Shown one piece after another: positions 11,339 through 25,898 of a stretch of DNA of 35,023 bases. Both the position numbers and the translations under genes were made by a program. The notes under the pieces were generated by a model, which did not search any database, was not told the origin of the DNA, and saw nothing but the letters and a program-made list of their open reading frames with translations. The DNA is taken from positions 1-35,023 of the IMG/VR virus record IMGVR_UViG_3300025803_000004; one strand, written 5' to 3'. How positions within the stretch are numbered: the first letter of the stretch is position 1; the number at the start of each line of letters is the position of its first letter. The stretch is from a virus. Lineage: Duplodnaviria > Caudoviricetes.

Positions 11339-11472
11339 TGGCAAAAAGAGCGGCTGTACATATCTATAAATCTAATAGTCGCAAAAGAAAAGGCGTACAC
11401 GCTAAAACAAAATCAAGTAAAGTAAAATCAAGTAAGAACTATCTTAAACGATATAAAGGACAAGGAAAATAA
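11338..11472 (+). CDS. 44 aa highly basic micro-protein (not in ORF track)
   Basis: MAKRAAVHIYKSNSRKRKGVHAKTKSSKVKSSKNYLKRYKGQGK, TAATG-coupled to the holin. Confidence 0.8.
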   Translation: MAKRAAVHIYKSNSRKRKGVHAKTKSSKVKSSKNYLKRYKGQGK

Positions 11473-11545
11473 ATTCAATAGGTATATTTTTCCTCCTTTG
11501 TGAATTTAATAGGTATTTTTTACTATCTTTGTGAATTCAATAGGG
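11472..11545 (+). repeat. Tandem repeat with 31-bp period (AATTYAATAGG...CTTTGTG)
   Basis: Units start at 11472, 11503 and 11534; the second contains TATCTTTG (TAnnTTTG) at 11524-11531. Confidence 0.85.
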
Positions 11546-11620
11546 TGTTTTATTAACTCTCATTGATTTTCTTTGTTTTCATTGTTGAAAAAGAGTGGCT
11601 ATAAAAAGTTGCTCTTTTTT
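11538..11620 (+). ncRNA. Candidate sRNA/3'UTR element antisense to AACAATGAAAACA start regions
   Basis: 11574-11587 is the exact reverse complement of 12936-12949. Bounded by a TAnnTTTG element and a terminator; the 5' end is a guess. Confidence 0.5.
11588..11620 (+). terminator. Intrinsic terminator ending the structural/lysis block
   Basis: AAAGAGTGGC-tataaaaa-GTTGCTCTTT plus T run. Confidence 0.8.
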
Positions 11621-11623
11621 GTT

Positions 11624-11652
11624 TTGCATATGACAATTTTTGTATATATTAG
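11624..11652 (+). promoter_or_regulatory. Host-type promoter TTGCATATGACA...TATATTAG
   Basis: Resembles the Bacteroidota -33 TTG / -7 TAnnTTTG consensus; same 5' core as 23096 and 24093. Confidence 0.6.
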
Positions 11653-11656
11653 CAAT

Positions 11657-12220
11657 ATGAAAAATTTGCAAAGTAAATTGGTGAATGTTCAAGCGACCTT
11701 GAAAGCACCTAAAAATCAACGAAACAATTTTGGTAATTATAATTATAGAAGTTGTGAAGACATTTTAGAAGCAGTCAAACCTATATTAAAAAAAGAAGGT
11801 TTAACTCTTATGTTATCAGACACTATAAATAACGAACCATTATATGTTATTGCTACTGCTACTATTTCTGATGGTACAGATAGCGTGAGTGTATCTGCTC
11901 AGGCAGGTATTGACCCTAATAAAAAAGGGATGGATGTTGCACAAAGTTTTGGTGCATCTAGCAGTTATGCAAGAAAATACGCTTTAAACGGCTTATTTTT
12001 AATAGATGATACCAAAGATGCTGATGCGACTAATATGCACGGAAAAGTGTCTAAAACGGCTTCTAAAGGCACATTAACCGATTCTAAACAATGGCTACAA
12101 AAAGATTCTGTTCAATTTAACAATGTTTTAAAGGCAATTAAAGAGAAAGGATTTACAATGGCTGATGTAAGACAAAAATACAAAGTAAGTAAAGAAGTCG
12201 AAAGTTTATTAACAAATTAA
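11657..12220 (+). CDS. ERF-family single-strand annealing recombinase (start moved to 11657)
   Basis: LKAPK.Q.N.FG.YNYRSCEDILEAVKP and GASSSYARKYALNGLFLIDD..DAD. The upstream TTG start runs through the terminator. Confidence 0.9.
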   Translation: MKNLQSKLVNVQATLKAPKNQRNNFGNYNYRSCEDILEAVKPILKKEGLTLMLSDTINNEPLYVIATATISDGTDSVSVSAQAGIDPNKKGMDVAQSFGASSSYARKYALNGLFLIDDTKDADATNMHGKVSKTASKGTLTDSKQWLQKDSVQFNNVLKAIKEKGFTMADVRQKYKVSKEVESLLTN

Positions 12221-12231
12221 ATTTAATTATT

Positions 12232-12480
12232 ATGAATGAAAAAAAGTATGTCGGTAGTGGAAAAAAAGTTGGAAACTACGATTTAGTTAATTTCACTATT
12301 AGTGAAGACAAGACCAAAGATGCTTGGATAGAGTATAATGGCAGAAGGTTTTTAAAGATGACTATTGGTAAAAAGAAAGAAGTTGACCAATATGGTAAAA
12401 CACACTCTATTTGGTTAGATGAGTGGAAGCCAGATGAAAAGTCAGAACCACAAAAAACGGAAACTGATTTACCATTTTAG
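12232..12480 (+). CDS. Small SSB-like protein
   Basis: Beta-rich, acidic tail ending DLPF, next to ERF. Confidence 0.6.
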   Translation: MNEKKYVGSGKKVGNYDLVNFTISEDKTKDAWIEYNGRRFLKMTIGKKKEVDQYGKTHSIWLDEWKPDEKSEPQKTETDLPF

Positions 12481-12487
12481 TTTAACA

Positions 12488-12560
12488 TAATCTTAGAGTG
12501 CCTAGCACTTTTCATGTTATATTTTTAGTTGTTTATTTACAGCTAGGCACTTTGAGATTA
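12488..12560 (+). ncRNA. 19-bp RNA hairpin whose 35-nt loop is antisense to the start of gene 22093
   Basis: 12488-12506 pairs with 12542-12560 (two G-U pairs on the + strand); loop 12509-12530 complements 22076-22099 with a 2-nt bulge. Confidence 0.6.
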
Positions 12561-12573
12561 AAATAATGAAACA

Positions 12574-12864
12574 ATGAATAATTATATCAATATTAATTTA
12601 GCATTTATGAATACAAATTTATCTATACAAGAATCGGCAGTTTTATCATATATTAGTTCTTTGGCAATAAAAAAGAATTATTGTTATGCTTCTAACGAAG
12701 CGATATGTAATGCCTTGAAACTCAACGATAGAACTTTATATAGAATATTAAAAAAACTAGAAGACAAAGAATATATTAAAAGGGAAACAAAAAGTATTGG
12801 AAACTACGGAAAGCAAAGAAAAATATTTATTTCTGCAAATGCCAGACTTGTCAGTTCCTTGTAA
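12574..12864 (+). CDS. Winged-HTH protein resembling the N-terminal domain of phage replication initiators
   Basis: CYASNEAIC..LKLNDRTLYRILKKLEDKEYIKR; upstream of iteron-like repeats and primase-helicase. Confidence 0.75.
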   Translation: MNNYININLAFMNTNLSIQESAVLSYISSLAIKKNYCYASNEAICNALKLNDRTLYRILKKLEDKEYIKRETKSIGNYGKQRKIFISANARLVSSL

Positions 12865-12927
12865 TACATAGTGTAATATATAATAAATATATAACATAGT
12901 GTAATATATAATATAATACATAATGTA
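12865..12927. repeat. Array 1 of (T/A)ACA-TA(G/A)-TGTA palindromes, 3 copies
   Basis: Copies at 12865, 12893 and 12917, separated by A/T-only linkers. Confidence 0.85.
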
Positions 12928-12940
12928 ATACAAAGCAACA

Positions 12941-14671
12941 ATGAAAACAGAATTTGAAAAAATTGGTATATTGCCAAAGGGTAATAATACACAACAAAAA
13001 GTAAAGTGCCCAAATTGTTATAAGATAGGCAAAGAACATTATAACGACCCCTGTTTAAGTATAAATCTTGATTCTGGGGTTTTTAATTGCCATAAATGTT
13101 CGTGGCATGGTAAAGTAAAAACAGAATATTATATGCCTGAGAAAAAAGTATATCAAAAACCTGTAAAGAATAATCTAAAGAAGCTCAATTTAAAATGTAA
13201 GAAGTTTCTTACCAAAAGAGGAATTACAGAAGAGGTTATTGAAGCAAACAAAATTATATCTACAAAAGATGGCAATAGTATTGTGTTTCCATACTTTAAA
13301 AACAATGAGCTTATAAATTATAAAACTCGTGGTATTAATGATAAAATATTTACACAAAGCAGAAATGGTTTGCCAATTATATATAACTATGATAGGGTTG
13401 CCAATGAAAAATTAATTATTATTTGTGAAGGAGAAATAGATTCATTGAGTTGGGAGGTAGCTGGTATTACTTGGCATACTTCTGTAAATATGGGTGCTCC
13501 TAATGTACACGATAAAAACATAGATAAAAAACTAGAATGTATATCTAATAGTTATGAAGTGTTTGAACAAGCTGAACGAATTTATATAGCTACTGATGAA
13601 GATGACAATGGTAGATATTTGTCTGAAGAATTAGTTAGAAGATTTGGAGCAGAAAAATGTAAGATAGTTAGTTTTAAACCTTATAAAGATGCTAATGAGG
13701 TTTTACAAAACGAAGGAGTAGAATCCTTAAAAGATAGAGTTAGAAATGCTATTGACCCAAAAGTTGAAGGTATATTTGGCATTGATGATATATTTGATTC
13801 AATGCTAGATAATTATAGAAATGGTCAAGAGAGAGGTACAACAACTTATATACCAAGTGTAGATTCTGCATGGACTTGGAGAAATGGAGAGTTAAATATT
13901 TGGACTGGCTATCAAAATGAAGGTAAGAGTATGTTTTTAAATCAGTTGGCATTATTAAAAGCATTTTTTGATGGTTGGAAGTTTGGAGTATTTTCACCTG
14001 AGAATATGCCAATCAATGACTTCTTTAATGATTTAATTGAAACTTATATTGGTAAAAGTGCCGACCCATTTTTTACTAATAATTATATGAGTGAAGATGA
14101 GTTTAGAAAGGGTATGGCATTTATGAAAAAACACTTTTTTATAATATATCCAAAAAAAAGTTATAAATTAGAAGATATATTTGACAGAGCTAAGTTTTTA
14201 GTGAAGACAAAAGGTATTCGTTCTTTGATTATTGACCCTTACAATACAATTCAACATAGGATGCAACATGGAGAGAGAGAAGATTTGTATATAAGTAGAT
14301 TTATGAGTGAGTTAAAAAGGTTTGCTATTGAAAATAAAATATCAATTCATTTAGTAGCACACCAAGTAACACCACAAAAAGATGACAACAACAAATATTT
14401 TAAACCTGATTTAAACAGGATTAAAGGTGGGGGAACATTTTCGGATAAAGCAGACAATGTATTGTTTGTGTGGAGACCAAATAGAGCAATAGACTTTTCT
14501 GATACTTCAGTAATATTTGGCAGTCAAAAGATAAAGAAGCAAAAACTCGTAGGTTATCCCCAAGAGATACATGGCATAACTTTCGATAGAAAATCATCGA
14601 GATATTATTTTCATAATGAAACACCATTTGAAGATATAGATAAGTTTCGATGCGAAGAAGAGCAAGAGTAG
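12941..14671 (+). CDS. Primase-helicase (T7 gp4/Twinkle-like)
   Basis: Zn finger CPNC...CHKC, TOPRIM ICEGEIDSLS / ATDEDDNG, Walker A GYQNEGKS, IIDPYN, VAHQ. Confidence 0.93.
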   Translation: MKTEFEKIGILPKGNNTQQKVKCPNCYKIGKEHYNDPCLSINLDSGVFNCHKCSWHGKVKTEYYMPEKKVYQKPVKNNLKKLNLKCKKFLTKRGITEEVIEANKIISTKDGNSIVFPYFKNNELINYKTRGINDKIFTQSRNGLPIIYNYDRVANEKLIIICEGEIDSLSWEVAGITWHTSVNMGAPNVHDKNIDKKLECISNSYEVFEQAERIYIATDEDDNGRYLSEELVRRFGAEKCKIVSFKPYKDANEVLQNEGVESLKDRVRNAIDPKVEGIFGIDDIFDSMLDNYRNGQERGTTTYIPSVDSAWTWRNGELNIWTGYQNEGKSMFLNQLALLKAFFDGWKFGVFSPENMPINDFFNDLIETYIGKSADPFFTNNYMSEDEFRKGMAFMKKHFFIIYPKKSYKLEDIFDRAKFLVKTKGIRSLIIDPYNTIQHRMQHGEREDLYISRFMSELKRFAIENKISIHLVAHQVTPQKDDNNKYFKPDLNRIKGGGTFSDKADNVLFVWRPNRAIDFSDTSVIFGSQKIKKQKLVGYPQEIHGITFDRKSSRYYFHNETPFEDIDKFRCEEEQE

Positions 14672-14931
14672 ATGCTAACCAAAAAGAGATAGTTGCCAAG
14701 CTAAGAGAGTTTGGTTGCTCAATCTTACACACACATCAATTAGGCAAAGGAGCACCAGATATTATTATTGGATTTAATAATCGAAACTATTTAATAGAAT
14801 TAAAAGATGGTAGTAAAACAAAATCTCAACAGAAACTCACACCAGATGAGGTTGAGTTCCAGAATGAATGGAAAGGGAACTATCATGTATGCAATAGTTT
14901 TGAACAAGTTAAATCTATATTGGTTGAGTAA
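14650..14931 (+). CDS. VRR-NUC-like PD-(D/E)XK endonuclease (resolvase-like)
   Basis: GKGAPDIIIG...LIELKDG...LTPDEVEF. Confidence 0.8.
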   Translation: MRRRARVDANQKEIVAKLREFGCSILHTHQLGKGAPDIIIGFNNRNYLIELKDGSKTKSQQKLTPDEVEFQNEWKGNYHVCNSFEQVKSILVE

Positions 14932-15499
14932 GATACTAAACATATTGGCAAAAAGACATACTGAATGGTTGAGAATGGCTTCTAGTTTTAAAATTAATAA
15001 TGAAGATGCCAATGAGATTGTACAAGAAATGTATATAAGGATGCACGATTATACAAAAGACATTGAAAGAATTATGTACAATGAAAAAGAAATAAATACT
15101 TTTTATATATATATTACAATGCGAAACATTTATTATAGTAAATTCTTGCAGTTTGGCAAGTCTGTAAAAAACAAAAAGATATTTTTATTTAGTGAATTTA
15201 ACAGAGATGATATATATAAATTATATGAGGATGTTGTAGAAGACTATAATGATTTTATAGATAATTACGAAAAAAAGGTTAAATTAGAAGAGTTGTTTGA
15301 TGTCATTGATAAAGAAATTGATGACTGGTATTGGTATGACAAGAAATTAACTAGGTTGTATTTTAATACTAAAATGAGTATGAGAGACATAAGTAAAGAA
15401 ACAAAAATAAGTTTAAGTTCAATATTTAATACATTAACAAATGCCAAAGAAAAAATCAGAAAAAAAGCAAAAGAGCATTACAAAAAGTACAAAGAGTAA
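14924..15499 (+). CDS. Phage sigma factor, sigma70/ECF-like (likely TTG start at 14924)
   Basis: Region-2-like DANEIVQEMYIR...YIYITMRN and region-4 HTH MSMRDISKETKISLSSIFNTL. Confidence 0.8.
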   Translation: MSKILNILAKRHTEWLRMASSFKINNEDANEIVQEMYIRMHDYTKDIERIMYNEKEINTFYIYITMRNIYYSKFLQFGKSVKNKKIFLFSEFNRDDIYKLYEDVVEDYNDFIDNYEKKVKLEELFDVIDKEIDDWYWYDKKLTRLYFNTKMSMRDISKETKISLSSIFNTLTNAKEKIRKKAKEHYKKYKE

Positions 15500-15845
15500 A
15501 GGTTTAGGAGATACTTTAGAAAAAGTATTTAAGAAAACAGGAATTGACAAAGTAGCTAAATGGGTATTAGGTGAAGATTGTGGTTGCGATGATAGAAAAG
15601 AAAAGCTCAATTATTTATTTCCATATTACAAACCAGAGTGTTTAACAGAAGATGAATTTAAATATCTTGATAAATATTTTAAAGAAGATAAAAAAACAAT
15701 TCATCCACAAACACAACAGAAGTTGTTAAAGATATTTAACAGAGTGTTTCATCAAAATAAAAAAATGACTAGTTGTAGTTCATGTTTTAAAACTGAATTA
15801 CACAATAAATTACATAGAGTGTATATCGAATATTTAGATGAGTAG
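15441..15845 (+). CDS. Hypothetical Cys-containing protein
   Basis: SKGLGDT..., CGC and CSSC motifs. Confidence 0.75.
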   Translation: MPKKKSEKKQKSITKSTKSKGLGDTLEKVFKKTGIDKVAKWVLGEDCGCDDRKEKLNYLFPYYKPECLTEDEFKYLDKYFKEDKKTIHPQTQQKLLKIFNRVFHQNKKMTSCSSCFKTELHNKLHRVYIEYLDE

Positions 15846-16236
15846 TTTAATAAGAAACAGAAAAAAGGTTAGACAAGTTATAGATTTTACAGGAGTGCAA
15901 AATGGTAAAATGCACCCTAGCGATATTGATGCTGTGTTAGAGTTTGATAATGAGATACTTATACTTATTGAAGTAAAATATAAATATAAAAAGATACCTA
16001 CTGGTCAAAGATTATTATTAGAGAGATTATGTAATTCTTGGCATACAAAAAAATCTATTGTATTAAAAGTTGAGCATGATTACGAAAGTGATGAAGAGAA
16101 TATACCATTAGAAAATTGTAAAATAACTGCAATATATTATGATAATAAATGGATTTATTATAGTGAGGGTTATGAATTTAAGAGATATATAAATAAGCTC
16201 GGTGAAAAATGGGAATGTAAAAAGTGCTCCTTTTAA
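15838..16236 (+). CDS. Putative PD-(D/E)XK nuclease-fold protein
   Basis: SDIDAVLEF...LIEVK. Confidence 0.55.
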   Translation: MSSLIRNRKKVRQVIDFTGVQNGKMHPSDIDAVLEFDNEILILIEVKYKYKKIPTGQRLLLERLCNSWHTKKSIVLKVEHDYESDEENIPLENCKITAIYYDNKWIYYSEGYEFKRYINKLGEKWECKKCSF

Positions 16237-16258
16237 ACAAATCTAATAGTTTTTATTA
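16236..16258 (+). promoter_or_regulatory. Candidate late promoter AACAA-N12-TTATTA
   Basis: Upstream of ATG 16266. Confidence 0.55.
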
Positions 16259-16265
16259 TTTATAT

Positions 16266-16412
16266 ATGCCACTAATAAAACCAAAGAGATACGAACAAAG
16301 AGAAAACTTCTTACAGAGGTTTATGAATAACGCCAAAATGATTTTAGAATATCCAGACCCTAAGCAAAGATATGCAGTTGCTATGGATATTTGGAAAAAG
16401 AAATTTAATTAA
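16266..16412 (+). CDS. 48 aa hypothetical protein (start moved to 16266)
   Basis: MPLIKPKRYE...EYPDPKQRYAV, lying between a promoter motif and a terminator. Confidence 0.75.
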   Translation: MPLIKPKRYEQRENFLQRFMNNAKMILEYPDPKQRYAVAMDIWKKKFN

Positions 16413-16466
16413 CCCTGCATCCTGCAATCATTCCGTCACTTAACACCATTGGGTGTGGGGTTTTTT
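16411..16466 (+). terminator. Terminator-like hairpin with unusually large loop
   Basis: AACCCTGCATCC pairs with GGGTGTGGGGTT (G-U pairs), 28-nt loop, then T run. Confidence 0.65.
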
Positions 16467-16475
16467 AAATAAAAC

Positions 16476-16506
16476 TTGCATAATTAATTAATTATTATTT
16501 AATTTG
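16476..16506 (+). promoter_or_regulatory. Host-type promoter TTGCAT...TTAATTTG
   Basis: TTG-to-TTG offset of 28 bp, as at 19815, 23096 and 24093. Confidence 0.55.
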
Positions 16507-16523
16507 TTTATAACAATGAAACA

Positions 16524-16763
16524 ATGAGAATAATATTACTACTATTAATTATGTTTATACAAAGTTGCACAAAGGAGAATTGTGATTTAGAATATTATCC
16601 TTCGCCTCCTAGACTTGAGCCATACCATGTCGAGTATGGAGATTACAATGTCAAATATGTTTATATATGTATAAATGGTTATAATGAAGTGTATAACTAT
16701 TATGTCTCAGGTGATTGTTGGGAACTAAATTATTCACAAAATTATAATTACGATTGTCAATGA
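16524..16763 (+). CDS. Lipoprotein
   Basis: MRIILLLLIMFIQSC signal peptide with lipobox Cys. Confidence 0.75.
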   Translation: MRIILLLLIMFIQSCTKENCDLEYYPSPPRLEPYHVEYGDYNVKYVYICINGYNEVYNYYVSGDCWELNYSQNYNYDCQ

Positions 16764-17533
16764 AAGACTTATTTACAACATTAGATGGCGAAGTTTGGGA
16801 TAGAAACGAACTTGTCGAAAAAGCCATACAAGATAAATTCTATTATGGTTATTTATCAACTGCTTGTTTTTCAAGTAGTGCTGTTAGCAAATTATTAAAA
16901 TCTCCTAGAGAATATAAAAAGGTAGAAGACTTACCAACTGAATCTGATGCACTTGCACAGGGATATTTATTTCATGCAAGTATTTTAGAACAGGATAAAT
17001 TTAATGAATGTTTATTCTTAGATGTGGCAACTAAAGCCAATAAGCAATACAAACTTGCCAAAGCTGAAAGATGGGATGTCTTTACAATGAAAGATAGAGA
17101 CAAAGCATTAAGAATGCGAGATAGATTTTATAGTTGCAAGGAAGCTAGTGATTTAATATCTGATTGTGAGTTTGAAGTACCACAAGTAGATTATTTATTA
17201 GATTATCCTTTTAGGGCAAAAGCTGATGCACTTGGTAGTTTGCTTGTAGATTTAAAAAGTACAAGCGACTTGAATAAATTTAAGTATAGTGCCAAAATAT
17301 ATAATTATGATAGTCAATGTTATATCTATTGTAATATGTTTGGCAAATCTTATAAGGATTTTAGATTTGTTGTTATTGATAAAACACCTACAAATGAAAT
17401 AGGAATATTTGATGTAAGCGAGGATTTTTATTATAGTGGCGAACAAAAAGTAGAGATGGCATTGAATGTCTATGAAAGGTTTATTAAAAATGAATTTAAC
17501 TTAAATGATTACTTAGTTATAGATACTTTGTAA
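16760..17533 (+). CDS. RecE/exonuclease VIII-like PD-(D/E)XK exonuclease
   Basis: SSS...LLKSP, G.LFH..ILE, RAKAD, VDLKST, YDSQ..IY. ATG 16760 overlaps the upstream stop. Confidence 0.82.
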   Translation: MKDLFTTLDGEVWDRNELVEKAIQDKFYYGYLSTACFSSSAVSKLLKSPREYKKVEDLPTESDALAQGYLFHASILEQDKFNECLFLDVATKANKQYKLAKAERWDVFTMKDRDKALRMRDRFYSCKEASDLISDCEFEVPQVDYLLDYPFRAKADALGSLLVDLKSTSDLNKFKYSAKIYNYDSQCYIYCNMFGKSYKDFRFVVIDKTPTNEIGIFDVSEDFYYSGEQKVEMALNVYERFIKNEFNLNDYLVIDTL

Positions 17534-17754
17534 TGAATAATATTTTATACCTAGATAAAGAAGAATGCTACTTAGACACCTTATTATGTTTGCAAACAAA
17601 TGTAACAACGCTTACAGATGCAATGATGATACTAAAACATTATGAAGATACTGAAGAATATGAGTGTTGTAGTGGCATATTAAAAGCAATAAATGAATAC
17701 AGAGAATCTATTAAAATTAATAAAAGACTTACAAGAGGACATAAATTATTATGA
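17533..17754 (+). CDS. Hypothetical protein
   Basis: TAATG-coupled; YEDTEEYECCSGI motif. Confidence 0.65.
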   Translation: MNNILYLDKEECYLDTLLCLQTNVTTLTDAMMILKHYEDTEEYECCSGILKAINEYRESIKINKRLTRGHKLL

Positions 17755-17935
17755 ATCTTATAAGCGCAATTTAATTCAATACATAATTCAAAGGTCTTGT
17801 TTTCAATGTAGAACAAGATTTGATTCGCAACAGATGTTAAGAATTTTGAAAGAATTACTTGAAGTTAACACAAAGATATATAAATTAAAATATGAAAAAC
17901 AAATACAGAGAGCTATTGAAAAAGGAATCTCCTAA
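17693..17935 (+). CDS. Hypothetical protein
   Basis: Overlapping ORF within the operon. Confidence 0.55.
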   Translation: MNTENLLKLIKDLQEDINYYESYKRNLIQYIIQRSCFQCRTRFDSQQMLRILKELLEVNTKIYKLKYEKQIQRAIEKGIS

Positions 17936-18230
17936 CTTATATAAGAATTATGAATCTATTATGTTAGAGCAATTTGAGTTGTTTGCCAAAAAACAATTAG
18001 ATTATGGCATAAGTAATATAAGTACAGGTGCTGACTTAAACACCGAAGAGGGCAAAAAGTTTGCATTATCTGGATTATGGTTTAGAATGAATGATAAGAT
18101 TAGTCGTTGGAAAAACCTTATTATTAAGAATCGAAAAGCTAACAATGAATCATTAGTGGATACTTTTCAAGACTTAGGTAATTATTCAATTATATCACAA
18201 TTAATAAGTAAAAATCAATGGAAGAATTAG
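17892..18230 (+). CDS. DUF1599/nucleotide-modification-associated-domain-1-like protein
   Basis: KKQLDYG...RMNDKISR..NL...ESLVDTFQDLGNYSII. Confidence 0.75.
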   Translation: MKNKYRELLKKESPNLYKNYESIMLEQFELFAKKQLDYGISNISTGADLNTEEGKKFALSGLWFRMNDKISRWKNLIIKNRKANNESLVDTFQDLGNYSIISQLISKNQWKN

Positions 18231-18586
18231 AAAACAACAAAAAGAAACCTGATGGTAGAAAAAATAATGGTGCAGTAAAAGGCATCTCAAGAGGTCAAGG
18301 AAGAAAACCAAAAGCGACTGAAAAGAAGTTAAGTAGCTTTGCTTTACAGAGTATGAAAAAAGTATTTGGTAGTGAAGAGAAAGCATGGTTAGAATTAGCT
18401 AAGATGTCAAAAGAAAGTTTCCCTCATATGAGATTACTTTGGGAATATAAATATGGCAAACCAAAAGAAAGCAAAGAATTAGATGTTAAGACTGAGGTTA
18501 ATATTCCTGTAATAAACTTCTTAGAAAAAGAGAAAACTATTGATATTGAATCTAAAGATGTAGATGAAGAATCTGAATCTAAATAA
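18218..18586 (+). CDS. Terminase small subunit (putative)
   Basis: DGRKNNG...GQGRKPK N-terminus, YGKPKE; directly upstream of the large subunit. Confidence 0.7.
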   Translation: MEELENNKKKPDGRKNNGAVKGISRGQGRKPKATEKKLSSFALQSMKKVFGSEEKAWLELAKMSKESFPHMRLLWEYKYGKPKESKELDVKTEVNIPVINFLEKEKTIDIESKDVDEESESK

Positions 18587-19778
18587 AAAGTATCAAGCTC
18601 TATTCAATTCAAAGAATAGATATTTTGTAATTACTGGTGGTCGTGGAAGTGGAAAGTCATTTGCAGTCAATACCTTCTTAGTATTACTAACTTTTGAAAA
18701 AGGACATAGAATATTGTTTACTCGTTTTACGATGACTTCGGCAGGTATGTCTATTATACCTGAATTTATTGAGAAGCTAGAATTAATGGGTATTGCTCAA
18801 CAATTTACCATAACTAAAACAGAAATAATAAATAATTTAACAGGCAGTTCAATATACTTTTCTGGTATTAGAACAAGTAGTGGAGACCAAACTGCAAAGC
18901 TAAAATCAATTCAAGGGGTATCTACATTTGTATTAGATGAAGCAGAGGAATTAACTGATGAGGAAAGTTTTGACAAAATAGATTTTAGTATCAGAGCTAG
19001 AGAAGTGCCAAACAGATGTATATTAATTCTAAACCCTACTACAAAAGAGAATTGGATATACCAACGATTCTTTCAAAACAGGGGAGTTCCTGATGGATTT
19101 AATGGCAATAAGAATGATATAACTTATATTCATACTACATACTTAGATAATCTTGAACACTTATCTAAATCGTTTGTTGAACAAATAGAAGATATGAAAG
19201 TAAGGAGACCAGAGAAATATAAACATCAGATTATGGGTGGATGGTTGCAAAGAGCAGAGGGAGTTATATTTACTCATTGGAATATAGGTAAATTCAATAA
19301 GGATATAGATTCAATATTTGGATTAGACTTTGGTTTTAGTGTTGACCCCTCAGCTTTAGTTGAAGTGGCAATAGACAAATCTAGGAAAATTATTTGGTTA
19401 AAAGAACATTTTTATAAAACAGGATTAACAACAAGTCAGATATTTGATTTAGCAATTCGATATTGTGGTAAGAATTTAATTGTAGCAGATAATTCTGAGC
19501 CAAGACTTTTGACTGAATTAAAAGTAAAAGGATTAAATATAGTGCCAACAATAAAAAAGAAAGGAAGTATATTAACAGGAATTACTTTAATGCAAGATTA
19601 TCAAATAGTCATTGACAATTCAAGTATAAATCTAATTCGTGAATTTAATAATTATGCTTGGAAATTAACAAATTCAATTCCTCAAGACAAATTCAATCAT
19701 GCTATTGATGGAAGTAGATATTCAATTCAATATTTATTAACTCGTTCAGTACCTCATGGTAGCTATTTTGTAAAATAA
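18564..19778 (+). CDS. terL: Terminase large subunit (PBSX/SPP1-like)
   Basis: Walker A GGRGSGKS, Walker B FVLDEAEE, LNP, GLDFGF..DP, NHAIDGSRY. Confidence 0.95.
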   Translation: MKNLNLNKKYQALFNSKNRYFVITGGRGSGKSFAVNTFLVLLTFEKGHRILFTRFTMTSAGMSIIPEFIEKLELMGIAQQFTITKTEIINNLTGSSIYFSGIRTSSGDQTAKLKSIQGVSTFVLDEAEELTDEESFDKIDFSIRAREVPNRCILILNPTTKENWIYQRFFQNRGVPDGFNGNKNDITYIHTTYLDNLEHLSKSFVEQIEDMKVRRPEKYKHQIMGGWLQRAEGVIFTHWNIGKFNKDIDSIFGLDFGFSVDPSALVEVAIDKSRKIIWLKEHFYKTGLTTSQIFDLAIRYCGKNLIVADNSEPRLLTELKVKGLNIVPTIKKKGSILTGITLMQDYQIVIDNSSINLIREFNNYAWKLTNSIPQDKFNHAIDGSRYSIQYLLTRSVPHGSYFVK

Positions 19779-19814
19779 TTTACAGAGGTAGATTAAACTT
19801 TTTATATTTTTTAT

Positions 19815-19845
19815 TTGGATATGTCATGTGGAATGTATAGTATTG
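19815..19845 (+). promoter_or_regulatory. Early host-type promoter TTGGATATGTCA...TAGTATTG
   Basis: Matches the promoters at 23096 and 24093. Confidence 0.7.
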
Positions 19846-19867
19846 TATAAACATTAAAACAATTATT

Positions 19868-20110
19868 ATGAAAACAATTAAAATAAATGCTTATCAATTT
19901 GATGAGCTATCAAACGATTCAAAATTTAATGTAAAATGTTGGTTGGATGAATTTCCAATTGAATACGAAGATGAATTGCCAAGTGGCGAACTTGTTACAA
20001 AGTATCAATATTTTACGGAAGAAGATGATGAATTTTCATCTGAAACTTGCAGAATAAATGAATATTTATTTACTAAACAGGGTAAACCAATACATCATTT
20101 GAAGATATGA
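19868..20110 (+). CDS. Hypothetical early protein
   Basis: First ORF after the promoter. Confidence 0.75.
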   Translation: MKTIKINAYQFDELSNDSKFNVKCWLDEFPIEYEDELPSGELVTKYQYFTEEDDEFSSETCRINEYLFTKQGKPIHHLKI

Positions 20111-20241
20111 AAAAAGCAAACATTAAAGCAACCTTAAAAAGATACGATGAGAACAGATATTTTCATCGTGCAGACTTTGATATTATTATGAAAAATAATA
20201 TTAAGATATTAGATGAATCCATTAAAAACAAAAAGAAATGA
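20107..20241 (+). CDS. 44 aa micro-ORF
   Basis: ATGA overlaps at both ends; MKKANIKATLKRYD... Confidence 0.65.
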   Translation: MKKANIKATLKRYDENRYFHRADFDIIMKNNIKILDESIKNKKK

Positions 20242-20375
20242 AACAAAGAAAACATACAATAGACGAGTTAAAACAATTAGTTTCTGTATTTAATTTCAGG
20301 CATCAATTTACAAATGATAGTGTACTGATGTCTGGAGATTTAAAAAAGTTAAACGAATTAATAGATAACTTATGA
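20238..20375 (+). CDS. 45 aa micro-ORF
   Basis: ATGA-coupled; MKQRKHTIDELKQL... Confidence 0.65.
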   Translation: MKQRKHTIDELKQLVSVFNFRHQFTNDSVLMSGDLKKLNELIDNL

Positions 20376-20539
20376 AACGAAGAGAAAAAATAATAGAATG
20401 TGCTGAGGGCATTATAGATTATATGTCTGAGCAAATGATTATGCCAAGAATATTTGAAGATTTTGGTAACGAGTTAGAAGCAGAGGAATATATAGAAATA
20501 GCAAACAAAGTCTATAATCAAATTAAATTAAGAATGTAA
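20372..20539 (+). CDS. 55 aa micro-ORF
   Basis: ATGA/TAATG-coupled; MKRREKIIECAEG... Confidence 0.7.
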   Translation: MKRREKIIECAEGIIDYMSEQMIMPRIFEDFGNELEAEEYIEIANKVYNQIKLRM

Positions 20540-20718
20540 TGAGCATAAAAGAATTAAGGCAAAAAATGAGTATGCTTGAAGATGAAGTTGATTGGTGGAG
20601 AACATATGGAGAATATGTTTCACGAGTTTATAGAAATGTAGATGCTGAAGCTTCTGGGTATGCTGATGGAGATGATGAATATAAAGACAACTTTAATAAA
20701 AATGCAGATAACTTATGA
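20539..20718 (+). CDS. 59 aa micro-ORF
   Basis: Coupled; MSIKELRQKMSMLEDEVDWWRTYGEY... Confidence 0.7.
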   Translation: MSIKELRQKMSMLEDEVDWWRTYGEYVSRVYRNVDAEASGYADGDDEYKDNFNKNADNL

Positions 20719-20867
20719 AAACAATTTGGCAAATCAGAGAAATGGATATTGAAGATTTAAAAGATGAGCTTACTGAATTAGGAGATAGAATTAAATATGA
20801 TTATTCAAATAGTAAAGATTTAAAATACTTTAGAAAACTACAAAACGAATTTAATAATAGAATATGA
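20715..20867 (+). CDS. 50 aa micro-ORF
   Basis: ATGA-coupled; MKTIWQIREMDIEDL... Confidence 0.7.
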   Translation: MKTIWQIREMDIEDLKDELTELGDRIKYDYSNSKDLKYFRKLQNEFNNRI

Positions 20868-21022
20868 GAACACTAGGAAGAATATTAAGAAAGTTCTTTG
20901 GCACAAACAAAGAGCAATATTGGTTATGTATCCCAAGATACATGGATAGCAAGAAAGCTAAGGATTTGTTCATTATGGACACAATAGAATTTTTAACAAG
21001 TAAAATACAAACAGATGACTAG
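20864..21022 (+). CDS. 52 aa micro-ORF
   Basis: ATGA-coupled; MRTLGRILRKFFG... Confidence 0.65.
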   Translation: MRTLGRILRKFFGTNKEQYWLCIPRYMDSKKAKDLFIMDTIEFLTSKIQTDD

Positions 21023-21185
21023 AACACCAGACATAGTTAGAGTGGAAATAAACCACTTAAGACAATTACTAAACAATGCAACAGAAAAGAATAAAGAATA
21101 TGAAAATAAAATTGCAGAGTTAGAAGCTAAACTTGATGTATATCATAAAAACTTAGAGCATGAGTACAGAAAGCAAAATGTTTAA
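21015..21185 (+). CDS. 56 aa coiled-coil micro-ORF
   Basis: Overlaps both neighbours; MTRTPDIVRVEINHLRQLL... Confidence 0.65.
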   Translation: MTRTPDIVRVEINHLRQLLNNATEKNKEYENKIAELEAKLDVYHKNLEHEYRKQNV

Positions 21186-21357
21186 TTATATTTTTGCCAT
21201 AAAAGAACATGGCGAAAACATATATTTAAAAGAATTTAAAACTGATAGAACTCCTGAATGGACTAAATCAGAATATTGTAGAAACAGGAAAATAGAATAT
21301 ATGAATCTATTATCTAAAGAAGAATATAACACTTATTACAAAGATTTAAAACAATGA
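21160..21357 (+). CDS. Hypothetical protein
   Basis: ORF track; stop overlaps the next start. Confidence 0.7.
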   Translation: MSTESKMFNYIFAIKEHGENIYLKEFKTDRTPEWTKSEYCRNRKIEYMNLLSKEEYNTYYKDLKQ

Positions 21358-21653
21358 AAACAACTTTAGAAGAATTAAAAGAATATAATAGAAGTTTAAT
21401 ATCTACACCAAGAGGTAATGATTTAAATACACTAGAAAATGATGTGTTAATTGAAGTAACATCTCATTGGCAAATAAAAGGAGAGGAGAAAGAGAATAGT
21501 GAGGTTTTAGCGAGGTTAGAGATATATAGTTATACAATTACTCAACAAGAGTTAGAAGTGTTGTTAGAATCGCTTAAAATGATTTATACACTACATCCTG
21601 ATGGAGAGATAAAAATGAAAGTAATTCATAATCACGATTACTTAAATTGTTAA
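21354..21653 (+). CDS. Hypothetical protein
   Basis: ORF track; A-rich start region. Confidence 0.75.
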   Translation: MKTTLEELKEYNRSLISTPRGNDLNTLENDVLIEVTSHWQIKGEEKENSEVLARLEIYSYTITQQELEVLLESLKMIYTLHPDGEIKMKVIHNHDYLNC

Positions 21654-21663
21654 TTCAATAGCT

Positions 21664-21924
21664 ATGCAACATAAATTTGTTAGAGAGCTTGTAGTGTTTA
21701 AATTTAAAAGTATTCGTAAAGCTACAAAAAGAGCTAAGTTGTTTGTTGATTATGATAATTCAATGGTTTGGATACCAAATTATATGATATTTAGGTATAA
21801 TTGGAATAAAGAAAAAAAAGTTGTAAATGTCATGTGTCCTAAAAAACATTTAGTTACAATTTTAAATCAACCAAGACATAAATACGAATATAAAAGGCAC
21901 GATAAAAATAAATTTAATACATAA
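21664..21924 (+). CDS. Hypothetical basic protein
   Basis: ORF track; last gene before the terminator. Confidence 0.7.
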   Translation: MQHKFVRELVVFKFKSIRKATKRAKLFVDYDNSMVWIPNYMIFRYNWNKEKKVVNVMCPKKHLVTILNQPRHKYEYKRHDKNKFNT

Positions 21925-21956
21925 ATTCAATATACATAAATTTAATCCATGTTTTT

Positions 21957-21995
21957 ACCCCTGTCAATTTAATAGCAATTCGATGGGGGTTTTTT
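21957..21995 (+). terminator. Intrinsic terminator preceded by anti-start TCCATGTTTTTA
   Basis: ACCCCTGTC...GATGGGGGT plus T run. Confidence 0.8.
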
Positions 21996-22036
21996 ATAAC
22001 CTATAAATATAAATAAAAATTATTTACACTTGACAT

Positions 22037-22066
22037 TTGGTCATATGGAATATTATAGTTAACTTG
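22037..22066 (+). promoter_or_regulatory. Early host-type promoter TTGGTCATATGG...TTAACTTG
   Basis: TTG-N19-octamer ending TTG, upstream of 22093. Confidence 0.55.
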
Positions 22067-22092
22067 CCAATGTTTAACTAAAAATATATAAC

Positions 22093-22662
22093 ATGGAAAC
22101 AAAACAAAAAACATTTACAGAATTCACTCCGATTGGCAAAACTTATTGGAATGATGAGGGGTTTTATCAAAAAGAATATACTGAGCATTATGATTGGTAT
22201 GTCCCAAATTCAGGCGATGCGCCAACAATTCATGGCGAATTATTAAGAGCAGTTTCAAGGTTACATTACGATTATTTTAACAATGGTAATTGCAATGTGC
22301 AAGAGGTGATTGAAGAAGATTGTCCTGATTGTTATGGTACAGGTTGGCAAGAAAGTGATTATGATGATGAAGAAGAAATTGATTGCTCAAGTTGTGGTGG
22401 TAATTGCACTTGGGAAACAGGGGTTGAAATCAATGAGTATTATCAAAGAATGATTGACTTTCTACAAGAATATTCTAATGCCCAAAACGAGATTGATGAG
22501 TTGGTTAAATTTTTAACCGATTATTATCATTATAGAAAACCTAATTTATTTGCTGAAAAGAATGAGCAACTTTATACAAGATTGGTCGATAAAATCATGC
22601 AACAGATTTTAACTGAAGGTAAAGATGGAAATAAACCGAACCCTAAATTTAAAAACATATAA
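22093..22662 (+). CDS. Hypothetical early protein with inserted DnaJ-type zinc-finger motifs
   Basis: VPNSGDAPTIHGELLRA...YDYFNNG core; CPDCYGTG and CSSCGG. Confidence 0.8.
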   Translation: METKQKTFTEFTPIGKTYWNDEGFYQKEYTEHYDWYVPNSGDAPTIHGELLRAVSRLHYDYFNNGNCNVQEVIEEDCPDCYGTGWQESDYDDEEEIDCSSCGGNCTWETGVEINEYYQRMIDFLQEYSNAQNEIDELVKFLTDYYHYRKPNLFAEKNEQLYTRLVDKIMQQILTEGKDGNKPNPKFKNI

Positions 22663-22663
22663 T

Positions 22664-22816
22664 ATGCACAGAATAGAAAGAAACATTTTGCACCACGCAA
22701 AACAAAATAGAGAATTAAGAAAATATTTAATGCACAGAGACGAAATGTCTAACGGAATTATAAAAAGAACTTATTTAAACAAAGATGGTTCAATTCATAG
22801 TGTTAGATATTTTTAA
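22664..22816 (+). CDS. 50 aa hypothetical protein (start moved to 22664)
   Basis: In-frame ATG just after the upstream stop. Confidence 0.6.
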   Translation: MHRIERNILHHAKQNRELRKYLMHRDEMSNGIIKRTYLNKDGSIHSVRYF

Positions 22817-22837
22817 AAAATTATGTTCATGTTTTTT

Positions 22838-22867
22838 AAGGGGGTCAATTTAGACCCTCTTTTTTTT
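22838..22867 (+). terminator. Intrinsic terminator preceded by anti-start TTCATGTTTTTT
   Basis: AGGGGGTC-aattta-GACCCTCT plus T run. Confidence 0.85.
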
Positions 22868-22883
22868 GTGTTTGATTTAAATA

Positions 22884-22911
22884 ATTTAACATAATGTAAG
22901 TTATAATTCAT
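22884..22911 (-). other. XerCD dif-like recombination site 1
   Basis: Minus strand ATGAATTATAA-CTTACA-TTATGTTAAAT: canonical XerD arm, 6-bp spacer, XerC arm ending ATAA. Confidence 0.8.
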
Positions 22912-23094
22912 TTTATAAATACTAAAAGTTAGATATTGTATTAAATCTCCATATGCCAAATAAAGCGCTTTTTAAGCGATTTAACGAATTATCTATGTTC
23001 TGTAATATATTACCCTTCAAAAAAAAAGTTATGCCAATAGCGACAATTTTCCTGAGGTAGAAAAATGACCATAAAAAAAATATTTAATAAAACA

Positions 23095-23126
23095 CTTGCA
23101 TATGTCAGTTGCGTTTTGTAGTATTG
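23095..23126 (+). promoter_or_regulatory. Early promoter, copy 1 of a 32-bp repeat
   Basis: CTTGCATATGTCAGTTGCGTTTTGTAGTATTG; 30/32 identical to 24092-24123. Confidence 0.8.
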
Positions 23127-23152
23127 AAAATATTAATTTTAAACTATAAAAT

Positions 23153-23314
23153 ATGAAAATACCTAAAGACACAAACTTTGTAAATTACAATGATTTGAAC
23201 CCACTTCAACAAAAGTACATTGATGATTGCCTTTTGTTAGAAAACATGGGTTTGCCAAATGATTTATTTGATGACTTGTATAGAGCAATATATAAAATAG
23301 AAAACAAAAAATAA
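23153..23314 (+). CDS. 53 aa micro-ORF
   Basis: MKIPKDTNFVNYNDL..., after the promoter. Confidence 0.65.
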   Translation: MKIPKDTNFVNYNDLNPLQQKYIDDCLLLENMGLPNDLFDDLYRAIYKIENKK

Positions 23315-23331
23315 TTTAAAACAACAAAAAC

Positions 23332-23505
23332 ATGGCAATTAAAAAACACACATTAGAACGAGCACAAAGACACACCGACAGAGATTTGTCGATGCTGACT
23401 GACTCAGGAGTCGTAAATTGTTTAATATCTACAATTGAAGAACTCAAAAGAGAAATATTAAAAGAATGTCGGGACCAAATATCTGATTATTCAGATGATA
23501 TATAG
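23332..23505 (+). CDS. 57 aa micro-ORF
   Basis: AAAAACATGG start; MAIKKHTLERAQRH... Confidence 0.7.
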   Translation: MAIKKHTLERAQRHTDRDLSMLTDSGVVNCLISTIEELKREILKECRDQISDYSDDI

Positions 23506-23527
23506 AACCATTTAAAACAATAAAAAC

Positions 23528-23959
23528 ATGGGAAAAGATTTAATAATTGGTGGACTCATTAGAAACATGAGAAAGCAAGAAAAAGCACCTAAAGACAAAT
23601 TTAAACATTTAGTCAAGTTGGGAAATGTAATTGATTTTACTTGGTGGGATTTGTATGGCAAAGGACAAGCAGAAAGAGTAATTGTCAGCACAGATAGTGA
23701 GGGCAGACCTCAAGTTAAATTCAAAGATACTTATTGGACCATAGAATGGATTGAGATTGTTGATATAAAGGAGCATGGTTGGTACACAAAAGAAAGGATT
23801 GAGAGATATAAAAAAGATGTTGAAACCCATATTGACATATCATTAGAAAATGATAAGGATGTTTTGTGGTGGAGTGTTGAAGAATATCTTTATCATCACA
23901 CTAACGATTGTGAATCTGATTGGGAGGGCGAAGATGATTGTGATTGTGAAGATGATTAA
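23528..23959 (+). CDS. Hypothetical protein with acidic Cys-containing tail
   Basis: ORF track; TAAAAACATGG start. Confidence 0.75.
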   Translation: MGKDLIIGGLIRNMRKQEKAPKDKFKHLVKLGNVIDFTWWDLYGKGQAERVIVSTDSEGRPQVKFKDTYWTIEWIEIVDIKEHGWYTKERIERYKKDVETHIDISLENDKDVLWWSVEEYLYHHTNDCESDWEGEDDCDCEDD

Positions 23960-23985
23960 ATAAATTCAATACTTAAAAATTCAAT

Positions 23986-24023
23986 ACCCTGTGAATTCAA
24001 TATGAATTTAACGGGGTTTTTTT
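23986..24023 (+). terminator. Intrinsic terminator with AATTYAA motifs in the hairpin
   Basis: ACCCTGT...ACGGGGT plus T run; similar to the hairpin at 21957. Confidence 0.8.
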
Positions 24024-24091
24024 GTGCTTAATTTTGGCAAGATATATCAAACCTAATTTATAAAGCTAATAAAAAAATAATTAAAAAAGTT

Positions 24092-24123
24092 CTTGCATAT
24101 GTCAGTTGCGTTTCGTAATATTG
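24092..24123 (+). promoter_or_regulatory. Early promoter, copy 2 of the 32-bp repeat
   Basis: CTTGCATATGTCAGTTGCGTTTCGTAATATTG. Confidence 0.8.
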
Positions 24124-24177
24124 TTTCTAAGTTCATTGACATCTCGGAAAACAAAGTAAAATCTAAAATTTAAAAAC

Positions 24178-24438
24178 ATGGAAAAACAAATTTTAAAAGT
24201 TATTAATTCTGATACTTTCGCAGTTTATCAAGGATACACAAAGGAGCATATTAAAAATATGTCTGGAAAAAGTATTTTTGAGCAAGGCGCAAGACAGACA
24301 CAAAATGGCAAACATTTATTAATGTGTTATAAAATTGCCGAAGGGATTTTTAACCCTTACCATATTTGGTTTAATAATAAATCAAAAGCATTGAGAGTAA
24401 AAAAATTAATTTCTAAACTATATGAAAACAATAATTAA
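24178..24438 (+). CDS. Hypothetical protein
   Basis: ORF track; TAAAAACATGGA start. Confidence 0.75.
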   Translation: MEKQILKVINSDTFAVYQGYTKEHIKNMSGKSIFEQGARQTQNGKHLLMCYKIAEGIFNPYHIWFNNKSKALRVKKLISKLYENNN

Positions 24439-24442
24439 AAAC

Positions 24443-24727
24443 ATGGAAGAAATACAAAAACAAGTTAAAAAAATTGTAATTGAATATTTAGTCAAAGACG
24501 GACACTTAAATATGTTCGCATTAACTGAATTTATTTATTTTGACATGAGTAAAGAACTCGGAAAGTCAATAATTGGATTAGAGAATTATAAAAAAGCTAA
24601 CCCAGACCGAATAAAAGAAATAGACATGAAAATATGTTTAGCTCATGACATCGGAGGAATTTTAAGAGGTGATAAAATGTTTATCCCTCGCTCATTATCT
24701 TATACTGAATATTATGAAAACAATTAA
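24443..24727 (+). CDS. Hypothetical protein (start probably 24443)
   Basis: TAAAAACATGGA start context follows the upstream stop. Confidence 0.7.
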   Translation: MEEIQKQVKKIVIEYLVKDGHLNMFALTEFIYFDMSKELGKSIIGLENYKKANPDRIKEIDMKICLAHDIGGILRGDKMFIPRSLSYTEYYENN

Positions 24728-24866
24728 AAACTTAATTATTAAAGCCCTTGAGATTTATTCTTTTGGGCTTTTCACACTCTTTTTGATAGTGTTGGGAGGG
24801 TTACTATTATTTGAGGTAATTATGCCTTTATTCTATCAATTTTTATTATTAATCTTTAAACTATAA
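24714..24866 (+). CDS. 50 aa membrane protein (start moved to 24714)
   Basis: Mostly hydrophobic sequence. Confidence 0.65.
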   Translation: MKTIKNLIIKALEIYSFGLFTLFLIVLGGLLLFEVIMPLFYQFLLLIFKL

Positions 24867-24870
24867 AACA

Positions 24871-25152
24871 ATGAAAACATTTGTAAGAAATTTAGAAAGC
24901 CCAAAGTCATTAAGACCTGTGGCAAATCAATTTATTATCTTTTCTGGTAATTATGAATACTTTCAGAGCTATGATTCATTAATAGCTAAGAAAAACATAA
25001 ACACAGGAAAATTAATCCTTGATGATTATTACTGGAATTATTCTCGAACAACTTCAAAGTACAGAAATCAATTTACAGGATTAACAACAAAGGAAACTGA
25101 GAAAGCTATAAAAGATAAACAAATAATATTAACTAATTTAAATCAAACATGA
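24871..25152 (+). CDS. Hypothetical phage protein
   Basis: FQSYDSLIA...WNYSRTTSKY motif, which I recall from other phage early proteins. Confidence 0.8.
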   Translation: MKTFVRNLESPKSLRPVANQFIIFSGNYEYFQSYDSLIAKKNINTGKLILDDYYWNYSRTTSKYRNQFTGLTTKETEKAIKDKQIILTNLNQT

Positions 25153-25239: not shown

Positions 25240-25254
25240 GCTTCAAAGCTATTA

Positions 25255-25282
25255 ATTTAACATAATATTAATTATGGTGCAT
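25255..25282 (-). other. XerCD dif-like recombination site 2
   Basis: Minus strand ATGCACCATAA-TTAATA-TTATGTTAAAT. Confidence 0.82.
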
Positions 25283-25646
25283 TTAATAATAATTAAATTT
25301 TATTAATCATTCTAACCTGTTTTTTAAATCTTAAATCATAGCTGTAAAAATCTAAGTTGTTGGTAATCAGTTAAAAAAGATTAATTAAACTAAATTTTTT
25401 TATTATTCCTTTAAATTCCACCCAAAAGACACAATTTAAGCCATTAATTCAATTCTAGTGGTATGTTACCCTTATTTTATTGTAAAGTACGCTAAAAAGC
25501 ACCTTAAAATGACTCTGTGCGCTTGATTTAGTGTTATATTGATGAGTATGCCTGTTTGAAATCGCGCCAATGTTATTACTCCACTCTCTCTACAAACTAA
25601 GGTTTCCATCTGACACTTGTAAGTTCAATGTGAATTTAATACCTTT

Positions 25647-25898
25647 ATGAATCTAATGGGTAAAATGTTTTATACTGTTTTGAATCATACTTTAAATGCC
25701 GCAGGGTTTTGTATTGATAATGGGATTAAGGTGTATCCTGTGCCAAAGACACAGACGGAGTTTTACATTGAAGTAGATAATAATGGTAATATTACAAGAA
25801 GTCCTAAGACTTATGGAACAAAAGAATGGAGTGAGAAAGTATGTGAGATATATGTTCATTATTATAAAAAATTATCTCCAAATGTCAAAAAGTCATAA
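25647..25898 (+). CDS. Hypothetical protein
   Basis: ORF track; start uncertain (25647, 25656 or 25665). Confidence 0.7.
   Translation: MNLMGKMFYTVLNHTLNAAGFCIDNGIKVYPVPKTQTEFYIEVDNNGNITRSPKTYGTKEWSEKVCEIYVHYYKKLSPNVKKS

Follow-up and report, generated by a model that had tools for sequence, protein, structure and literature searches.

The window analysed here, a 35,023-nucleotide (nt) stretch of phage DNA (IMG/VR record IMGVR_UViG_3300025803_000004), comprises the complete genome of a phage, whose ends overlap by 136 nt; all credible genes lie on the + strand, as a first-pass annotation had stated. That annotation also proposed that four intergenic elements of the + strand, here called E1 to E4, are complementary to translation starts of the phage itself and form a network of anti-start-codon RNAs. 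We followed up this proposal by comparison with related phages, and our main subject is E1, a conserved unit upstream of the ERF gene whose seed covaries with the starts of the phage's replication genes. The elements, target sites and tagged starts of the window described below are on the + strand.

Structural and lysis genes are followed in the window by genes for ERF (11657), an SSB-like protein, an HTH/replication-initiator-like protein (12574-12864, with a PHROG match to a replication initiation protein) and a primase-helicase (12941-14671). Further 3' come genes for a phage sigma-like protein (14984-15499), exonuclease and terminase, and then a block of small unannotated genes (19868-25152), which we call early on the grounds of their position and promoter content. 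The nearest cultured primases are those of Tenacibaculum phage JQ (48%) and of Cellulophaga and Flavobacterium phages, and these relatives, together with TAnnTTTG boxes and A-rich leaders without Shine-Dalgarno sites, indicate a host among the Flavobacteriia. A scan of prokaryote genomes with ERF gave distant matches only, the best in a contig of a Polaribacter metagenome-assembled genome (MAG; 61%). The phage family is uncultured, and its hosts are probably marine Flavobacteria. Bacteroidota are described as using neither Shine-Dalgarno pairing nor Hfq (PMC7366714, PMC11697453); start selection relies on an A-rich leader in place of the Shine-Dalgarno site, and the -7 promoter consensus is TAnnTTTG (PMC7366714).

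Anatomy and conservation of the E1 unit

Just 5' of E1 lies a -7 box of this Bacteroidota type (11524-11531), which is kept in relatives. The position of the box places the 5' end of a predicted small RNA (sRNA) of about 85 nt (approximately 11536-11621), with a single-stranded seed at 11561-11587 (mean unpaired probability 0.88 over 11574-11585) and an intrinsic terminator, hairpin plus U-run, at 11587-11621. The seed is the complement of (CAACA)ATGAAAACAAAG and of AAAACAAAGAAA leaders. We extracted this unit of promoter, U-rich seed and terminator at 53 of 57 loci with ERF and primase (37 unique; ERF identity 57-100%); of the rows dropped here, L030 and L149 are truncated, and L067 and L074 have no unit directly before ERF. 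A -7 box spelled TATCTTTG, TATATTTG or TATCTTTA is present in 35 of the 37 unique units, the other two having been mis-picked by the extraction script. The letters of the terminator stem vary freely among lineages; the hairpin and U-run stay. An L062-like group has a gene inserted before ERF, and the unit was found about 460-495 nt farther upstream at 14 of the 19 loci checked. The extra gene between the unit and ERF, of about 450 nt, was seen in L067 and in L326-L349.

The window genome holds a single copy of E1, with which E2, E3 and E4 share just TTCAT/CATG cores, and the word TTGTTTTCAT, picked post hoc, is exclusive to E1 there (expected 0.06). The first-pass annotation had regarded the elements as processed RNAs or RNAs derived from 3' untranslated regions; since E1 has its own conserved -7 box, it looks instead like a stand-alone gene, and readthrough from the lysis operon may be a second source of the RNA. 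The RNA-labelled runs X2, X6, X8 and X9 consist of assembled contigs only and are thus uninformative on expression. ERF is served by a separate promoter 3' of the E1 terminator. The E1 promoter lacks the TGTCA box of the ERF and early promoters and carries a RAATTYAATA motif, as does the region before the first late gene; this makeup hints at separate control and does not date the RNA.

RAATTYAATA is strand-biased in all 10 whole genomes checked, with 3-20 copies on the + strand (expected 0.7-2.1) and 0-2 on the - strand. In the window it occurs at 11471, 11502 and 11533, at 19290 and 19641, at 21910 and 21923, at 23962, 23977 and 23993, and at 25632. These copies cluster around the promoter of E1, the terminase gene's 3' end and the early terminators, and also precede the first late gene. 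The motif could serve either in RNA, as an antitermination (RNA-binding) box, or in DNA, as a directional site recognised by a phage regulator. The ERF promoter has peculiarities of its own. At 11645-11659 its -7 box lies only 4 nt 5' of the ERF ATG, and most relatives with an E1 unit show the same spacing; the ERF mRNA is therefore probably leaderless. A TTG..TGTCA(GTTG)/TGACA box 5' of a degenerate -7 box is common to the ERF and early promoters (11623, 19815, 22030, 23096 and 24093) and is a possible site for the phage sigma-like protein; TGTCAGTTG 5' of ERF is retained in distant relatives.

Covariation of E1 with replication and early gene starts

E1 (11574-11587) is an exact 14-nt complement of 12936-12949 at the primase-helicase start, and it matches the early starts at 21354 and 24871 over 14 nt (21350-21363) and 13 nt (24867-24879). 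Among 412 CAT × 857 ATG pairs there are three matches of 14 nt, two from E1 and the third from a coding CAT at 13091. The matches quoted for the other elements hold on recheck as well, namely E2 (12509-12530) with 22076-22099, interrupted by one G-U pair and a 2-nt bulge, E3 with 12 exact nt at 24171-24182 and 24436-24447 and 11 nt at the 23528 start, and E4 with a pairing that includes G-U. So does their placing: terminator stems lie directly 3' of E1, E3 and E4, and E2 is a 35-nt loop on a 19-bp stem.

To relate E1 to its putative targets across lineages, the last 40 nt before its terminator were paired with a 60-nt window at the primase start, and own combinations were compared with foreign ones by permutation. 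Over 10 lineages the longest exact match was 9.2 for own and 6.9 for foreign starts (2/20,000 permutations), with 4/20,000 for duplex energy and 81/20,000 for local alignment. Two further locus scans, from which loci lacking ERF or the 5' end of the primase gene (11 loci) were dropped, added five new lineages, which by themselves gave 4 and 8 of 120; for the 14 lineages that remain when the window is left out, the values were 1 and 2 of 50,000 for exact match and duplex energy. When 11 gene starts were compared in up to 15 lineages, the effect appeared only at the primase-helicase start (0 of 10,000 on both scores) and at that of the HTH gene (4 and 1 of 10,000), where the window has a 9-nt exact match at 12570-12578. 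At the nine other gene starts we found no preference of E1 for its own lineage (lowest value 352 of 10,000), and eight offset windows around or inside the primase gene gave a lowest value of 100. Seven disjoint nearest-neighbour pairs, for primase and HTH alike, showed an exact-match contrast that was positive in six and zero in one, and a duplex contrast that was positive in six.

Single lineages illustrate how seed and target change together. In L012, CCC in the RNA is mirrored by GGG in the primase leader (ATATTTCCCTT / AAGGGAAATAT); L013, L017, L062, L384 and L385 each have their own primase match of 8-14 nt (11 nt in L013, 14 nt in L062, 9 nt in L385), and L393 has a 12-nt match at its HTH start. 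In the L006 clade, CATTGTT is gone from the RNA and ACAATGAAA from the primase, and the RNA has a 10-nt match to its own HTH start. The covariation supports base-pairing of E1 with the phage's own starts, which upholds the earlier proposal for E1 and the primase-helicase and adds the HTH start at 12574, which had not been named.

Two observations concern the replication genes themselves. The spacer between HTH and primase genes is AT-rich and repetitive in all 15 lineages; in the window it carries TACATAGTGTAATATA-type repeats (12865-12930), found again directly after gene 25647-25898, which are candidates for an origin-like sequence or for HTH binding sites. In L019/G013 the primase-helicase frame stops early (39% of alignment columns filled) and the best tblastn piece begins about 650 nt later than in its kin, so that the gene is probably interrupted by an intron or insertion.

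The early genes provide a further set of matches. Across 22 related phages, 104 of 327 early starts contain an exact E1 complement of at least 10 nt, which 8 of 946 internal ATG windows do, and 200 shuffles gave a mean of 9.9 and a maximum of 24 matches at the early starts. The E1 of the window matches 140 of 385 unique early start windows, 64 of 476 middle, 5 of 295 late and 16 of 541 Polaribacter ones, the latter taken from 800 kb of a 2.9-Mb Polaribacter MAG. Many of these early starts share the tag ATGAAAACAA, which opens 96/385 early, 3/476 middle, 0/295 late and 3/541 Polaribacter starts. At least one tagged member is found in 42 of 123 early protein families. All 109 early starts encoding MKT are spelled ATG AAA ACA, with ACA used for 101 of 137 other N-terminal threonines and 664 of 1358 deeper ones. 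Distant lineages, most of them with other seeds, carry ATGAAAACA on 15 of 183 starts and spell 5 of 20 MKT starts in other codons. In the window, the tag marks early starts at 19868-19877, 20715-20724 and 24714-24723, as well as an upstream in-frame ATG at 24422-24431 of gene 24422/24443-24727, whose true start is uncertain. In 11-12 lineages E1 also favoured its own early starts over foreign ones, with 6-92 of 20,000 permutations reaching the observed values across scores; in this test L111, a member of the L006 clade whose seed differs by one T, supplied the early starts for the L006-type RNA.

These numbers also bear on the possibility that the chief partners of E1 are host mRNAs with A-rich starts, in a takeover of the FopS kind, and that the phage matches merely reflect a shared start grammar. 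Known Bacteroidota sRNAs (FopS and GibS, see below) do act on host mRNA starts, and the 16 of 541 Polaribacter starts matching over at least 10 nt could mean tens of host targets. The tag, however, is enriched about 45-fold at phage early starts relative to the starts of Polaribacter, which may not be the host, and E1 covaries, lineage by lineage, with the primase and HTH starts of its own phage but not with nine other starts. We consider this explanation improbable.

Several findings weigh against E1 as a regulator of the phage's own starts. In the window itself, duplex energies at 57 starts were compared with those of 300 dinucleotide shuffles and of 149 internal ATG windows, and the best E1 value was reached by 75 of the 300; the primase start ranks only 8th of the 57 for E1. 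E4 fared no better (98/300), E2 was borderline (best 18/300, early mean 4/300), and E3 reached 29/300 for its best duplex and 4/300 for its top three. The warning attached to the original proposal, that AT-rich sequence inflates chance matches, was therefore fair and made relatives necessary; because duplex energy in the window alone does not beat shuffles, the case for E1 is a comparative one. Within that comparison, five of the 15 lineages (L006, L016, L018, L322 and L368) have just 5-7 nt of match to the primase start and weak duplexes, L019 and L393 have just 6 nt, though their duplexes rank high, and the L006 clade lacks a CAT beside the terminator. Being drawn from related phages, the early-start counts are not independent of one another, and the start calls are heuristic. 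Host targets could, by the Polaribacter count, equal phage targets in absolute number. Lastly, translation by itself may select for A-rich MKT starts, which E1 would then follow; either way, the E1 seed separates early from late starts.

A start-context matrix applied to 411 CATs ranked E1 5th, E2 15th and E3 215th, all below the median true start, and this too counts against the reading; the top 20 included seven intergenic CATs (p = 0.014), and E4 was 12th of 58 intergenic ones. In another explanation, the CATs are start codons of small proteins on the minus strand. Their reverse complements resemble strong Bacteroidota starts, and an E2 peptide frame of the MKSxRHSKIxLN type is kept in four close relatives. 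The frames nevertheless differ among relatives (7-25 residues with frameshifts for E1, 4-16 residues for E2), and promoter box and U-tail are on the + strand. With its frames not conserved, this explanation is largely refuted, and we rejected it as extremely improbable.

The elements E2, E3 and E4

E2 (12488-12560), between the SSB-like and HTH genes, is a 19-bp stem with a 35-nt U-rich loop containing TTTCAT (z = -5.5). Its best target is the leader and start of gene 22093 (22076-22099), with -20.4 kcal/mol the best of 57 starts. The long loop is confined to the window's subclade (13 of 23 phages examined), and TTTCAT is retained in 10 of the 13 long-loop versions while the flanks change. Compared with all own early starts (22 other phages compared), E2 ranked its own phage first in only 3 of 23 rows and so showed no general preference for it; this comparison dropped five duplicated L003 starts (a mis-trimmed overlap), in L001 two doubtful open reading frames and two late starts, and further late starts in L099 (three), the window and L093 (one each). 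By a rule fixed post hoc, E2 covaried with the gene next after the first early terminator detected (51 and 982 of 40,320, or 33 and 491 of 5,040 when the window is left out). The stem could be an RNase III site that would free the loop. Whether E2 adds a second anti-start RNA is, in our estimation, evenly balanced.

E3 (21946-21957), an anti-AAAAACATGG trailer, precedes the first early terminator (21957-21995), and E4 (22826-22836), an anti-AAAAACATG trailer, the terminator at 22838-22868; both are weak candidates. In the window genome, CATGTTTTT occurs at E3 and E4 only (expected 0.13) and AAAAACATGG at four early starts only (23326, 23522, 24172 and 24437, spanning 23326-24446; expected 0.16), which are possible E3/E4 targets, both words having been picked post hoc. 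The trailers are kept in close kin while the upstream genes change. Phages with a CATGTTT trailer more often have AAC|ATG starts (18/116 vs 19/349; Fisher p = 0.001), a comparison of one clade with the rest. We tentatively regard E3 and E4 as clade-specific 3' trailers that may act as anti-start RNAs, an assignment that is rather doubtful.

For these two, another account is available: U-rich stretches before terminators could be protein-binding or stability elements (for S1, or an RRM protein such as RbpB) or chance products of AT-rich sequence, their complementarity being incidental. Single-stranded regions of FopS are bound by RbpB, as the FopS paper describes (PMC11697453). Farther kin have GTTTGTTTG (also given as TTTGTTTGTTTG) without CAT at the E3 position, E4 duplexes are no better than those of shuffles, and E3 covariation without the window is not significant (16907 and 2424 of 40,000), although for several distant lineages the script took a later, non-homologous terminator. 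This account does not explain the restriction of CATGTTTTT to E3 and E4, nor the target-specific covariation of E1; it fits E3 and E4 much better than E1, and as an explanation of the whole it is very improbable. Of the four-element network, then, E1 is supported and E2 partly so, by post hoc covariation, whereas E3 shows no covariation when the window is left out and E4 is a weak candidate.

Early terminators are also followed by two conserved non-coding stretches (22870-23090 and 25240-25400) that are related to each other, are present in relatives and share the pattern AATTTAACATAAT...TTAT.GTTCATTT.

E1 among known regulatory RNAs

The first-pass annotation knew of no description of such a network; the kind of mechanism is, however, known in Bacteroides. 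FopS (Rfam RF04319) is described for Bacteroides thetaiotaomicron as a family of short sRNAs with a sigma-ABfr promoter, whose single-stranded U-rich TTTTCAT seed blocks translation by pairing around start codons, and of which a copy is noted in a phage (PMC11697453). GibS (Rfam RF04182), in the account of PMC7366714, is a trans-acting Bacteroidota sRNA with a long unstructured AT-rich seed that spans target starts. E1 resembles FopS, at the level of sequence, in its conserved -7 box and terminator, and GibS in an AT-rich unstructured seed that would span target start codons. Its seed adjoins the terminator, however, while that of FopS is at the 5' end; FopS acts on host SusC mRNAs and GibS is chromosomal with metabolic targets, whereas the probable targets of E1 are the phage's own replication and early genes, and the E1 seed is rewritten lineage by lineage along with them. 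The FopS model gave its best value, 18.8 bits against a cut-off of 56, at 22788-22869 in the E4 region and did not match E1, weak matches being found in 8 of 14 control genomes as well; the GibS model reached 11.2 bits against a cut-off of 115. Multicopy paralogues of the FopS type sharing an R1' seed were not found, E1 being single-copy in the genome. Rfam 15 families, C4 included, gave no window match at E <= 1 save one chance-level SraG match outside the elements. E1 would work like GibS and FopS, yet belongs to neither family.

Among phage RNAs, the c4 antisense RNA of P1/P7 and the CI RNA of P4 are phage-encoded, act in trans and silence the phage's own genes. E1 differs from them in lacking a cloverleaf or RNase P-type fold and in having many putative targets through a common start tag, where theirs is one operon. 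The lambda sRNA PreS/LPR1 is described as tuning DNA replication by pairing near a translation start (bioRxiv 10.1101/2024.10.31.621285); PreS is Hfq-dependent and activates host dnaN, whereas the covarying targets of E1 are phage genes, whose AUG or leader the pairing would cover. We found no comparable phage RNA in Bacteroidota in a literature survey that took in few subscription papers and no supplements, where FopS target tables and phage alignments may bear on the question. In the cultured Tenacibaculum phage JQ (L395, MT002873.2), positions 3567-3660 hold a TATATTTG box, GTTTTTCATG (resembling the FopS seed), a U-rich stretch and a terminator, with a second CAT-rich stretch after it, a similar promoter-TTTTTCAT-terminator layout. 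By this layout the JQ unit would be an analogue of E1.

The best reading of these comparisons is that E1 is a trans-acting sRNA that would cover start codons of the phage's own replication and early genes. More fully, we think it likely that this conserved unit, with a seed covarying with the primase-helicase, HTH/initiator and early starts, produces an RNA of about 85 nt that pairs over start codons and represses translation. Host polymerase would transcribe E1 from its -7 box, and the unpaired seed would pair across the AUG or the A-rich leader. As such pairing covers what Bacteroidota need for initiation, as with GibS and FopS, it would repress rather than activate. E1 would accumulate with genome copy number and exert a negative feedback, damping the initiator, the primase-helicase and the tagged early genes and sparing structural and late genes.

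The same pairing could serve immunity or copy-number control in a non-lytic carrier state in place of lytic timing, for which plasmid antisense RNAs on rep, P1 c4 and P4 CI are models. With a -7 box for host sigma factor E1 could be constitutive, and its putative targets are a replication initiator-like gene and a primase-helicase. On the other side, integrase, repressor and partition proteins had no match among the 46 window proteins scanned, and the primase had no relative in a pattern scan of 185,579 prokaryote genomes. A carrier-state role has a small chance of being right.

With greater doubt still than for E3 and E4 by themselves, the elements might be combined into a layered RNA timer. 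Address tags in translation starts would be read by E1 as master sRNA and by several by-product RNAs from the E2 loop and the E3/E4 trailers, and selection for the tag would fix ATG AAA ACA in members of a third of early families and bar it from every late gene. If this were true, an RNA regulator would shape a protein N-terminus, and no protein repressor would be needed to shut off early and replication genes.

How phages without an obvious repressor switch off their early and replication genes is mostly unexplained outside a few coliphages. The comparative evidence for the targets of E1 is unusually direct: through co-evolution the unit itself singles out two replication genes, for the initiator-like protein and the primase-helicase, together with the tagged early genes, and this defines exact seed and compensatory mutations. 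E1 also offers a compact route to the design of repressor RNAs for Bacteroidota. For this family of phages, its action would explain why many of their small early proteins begin with MKT.

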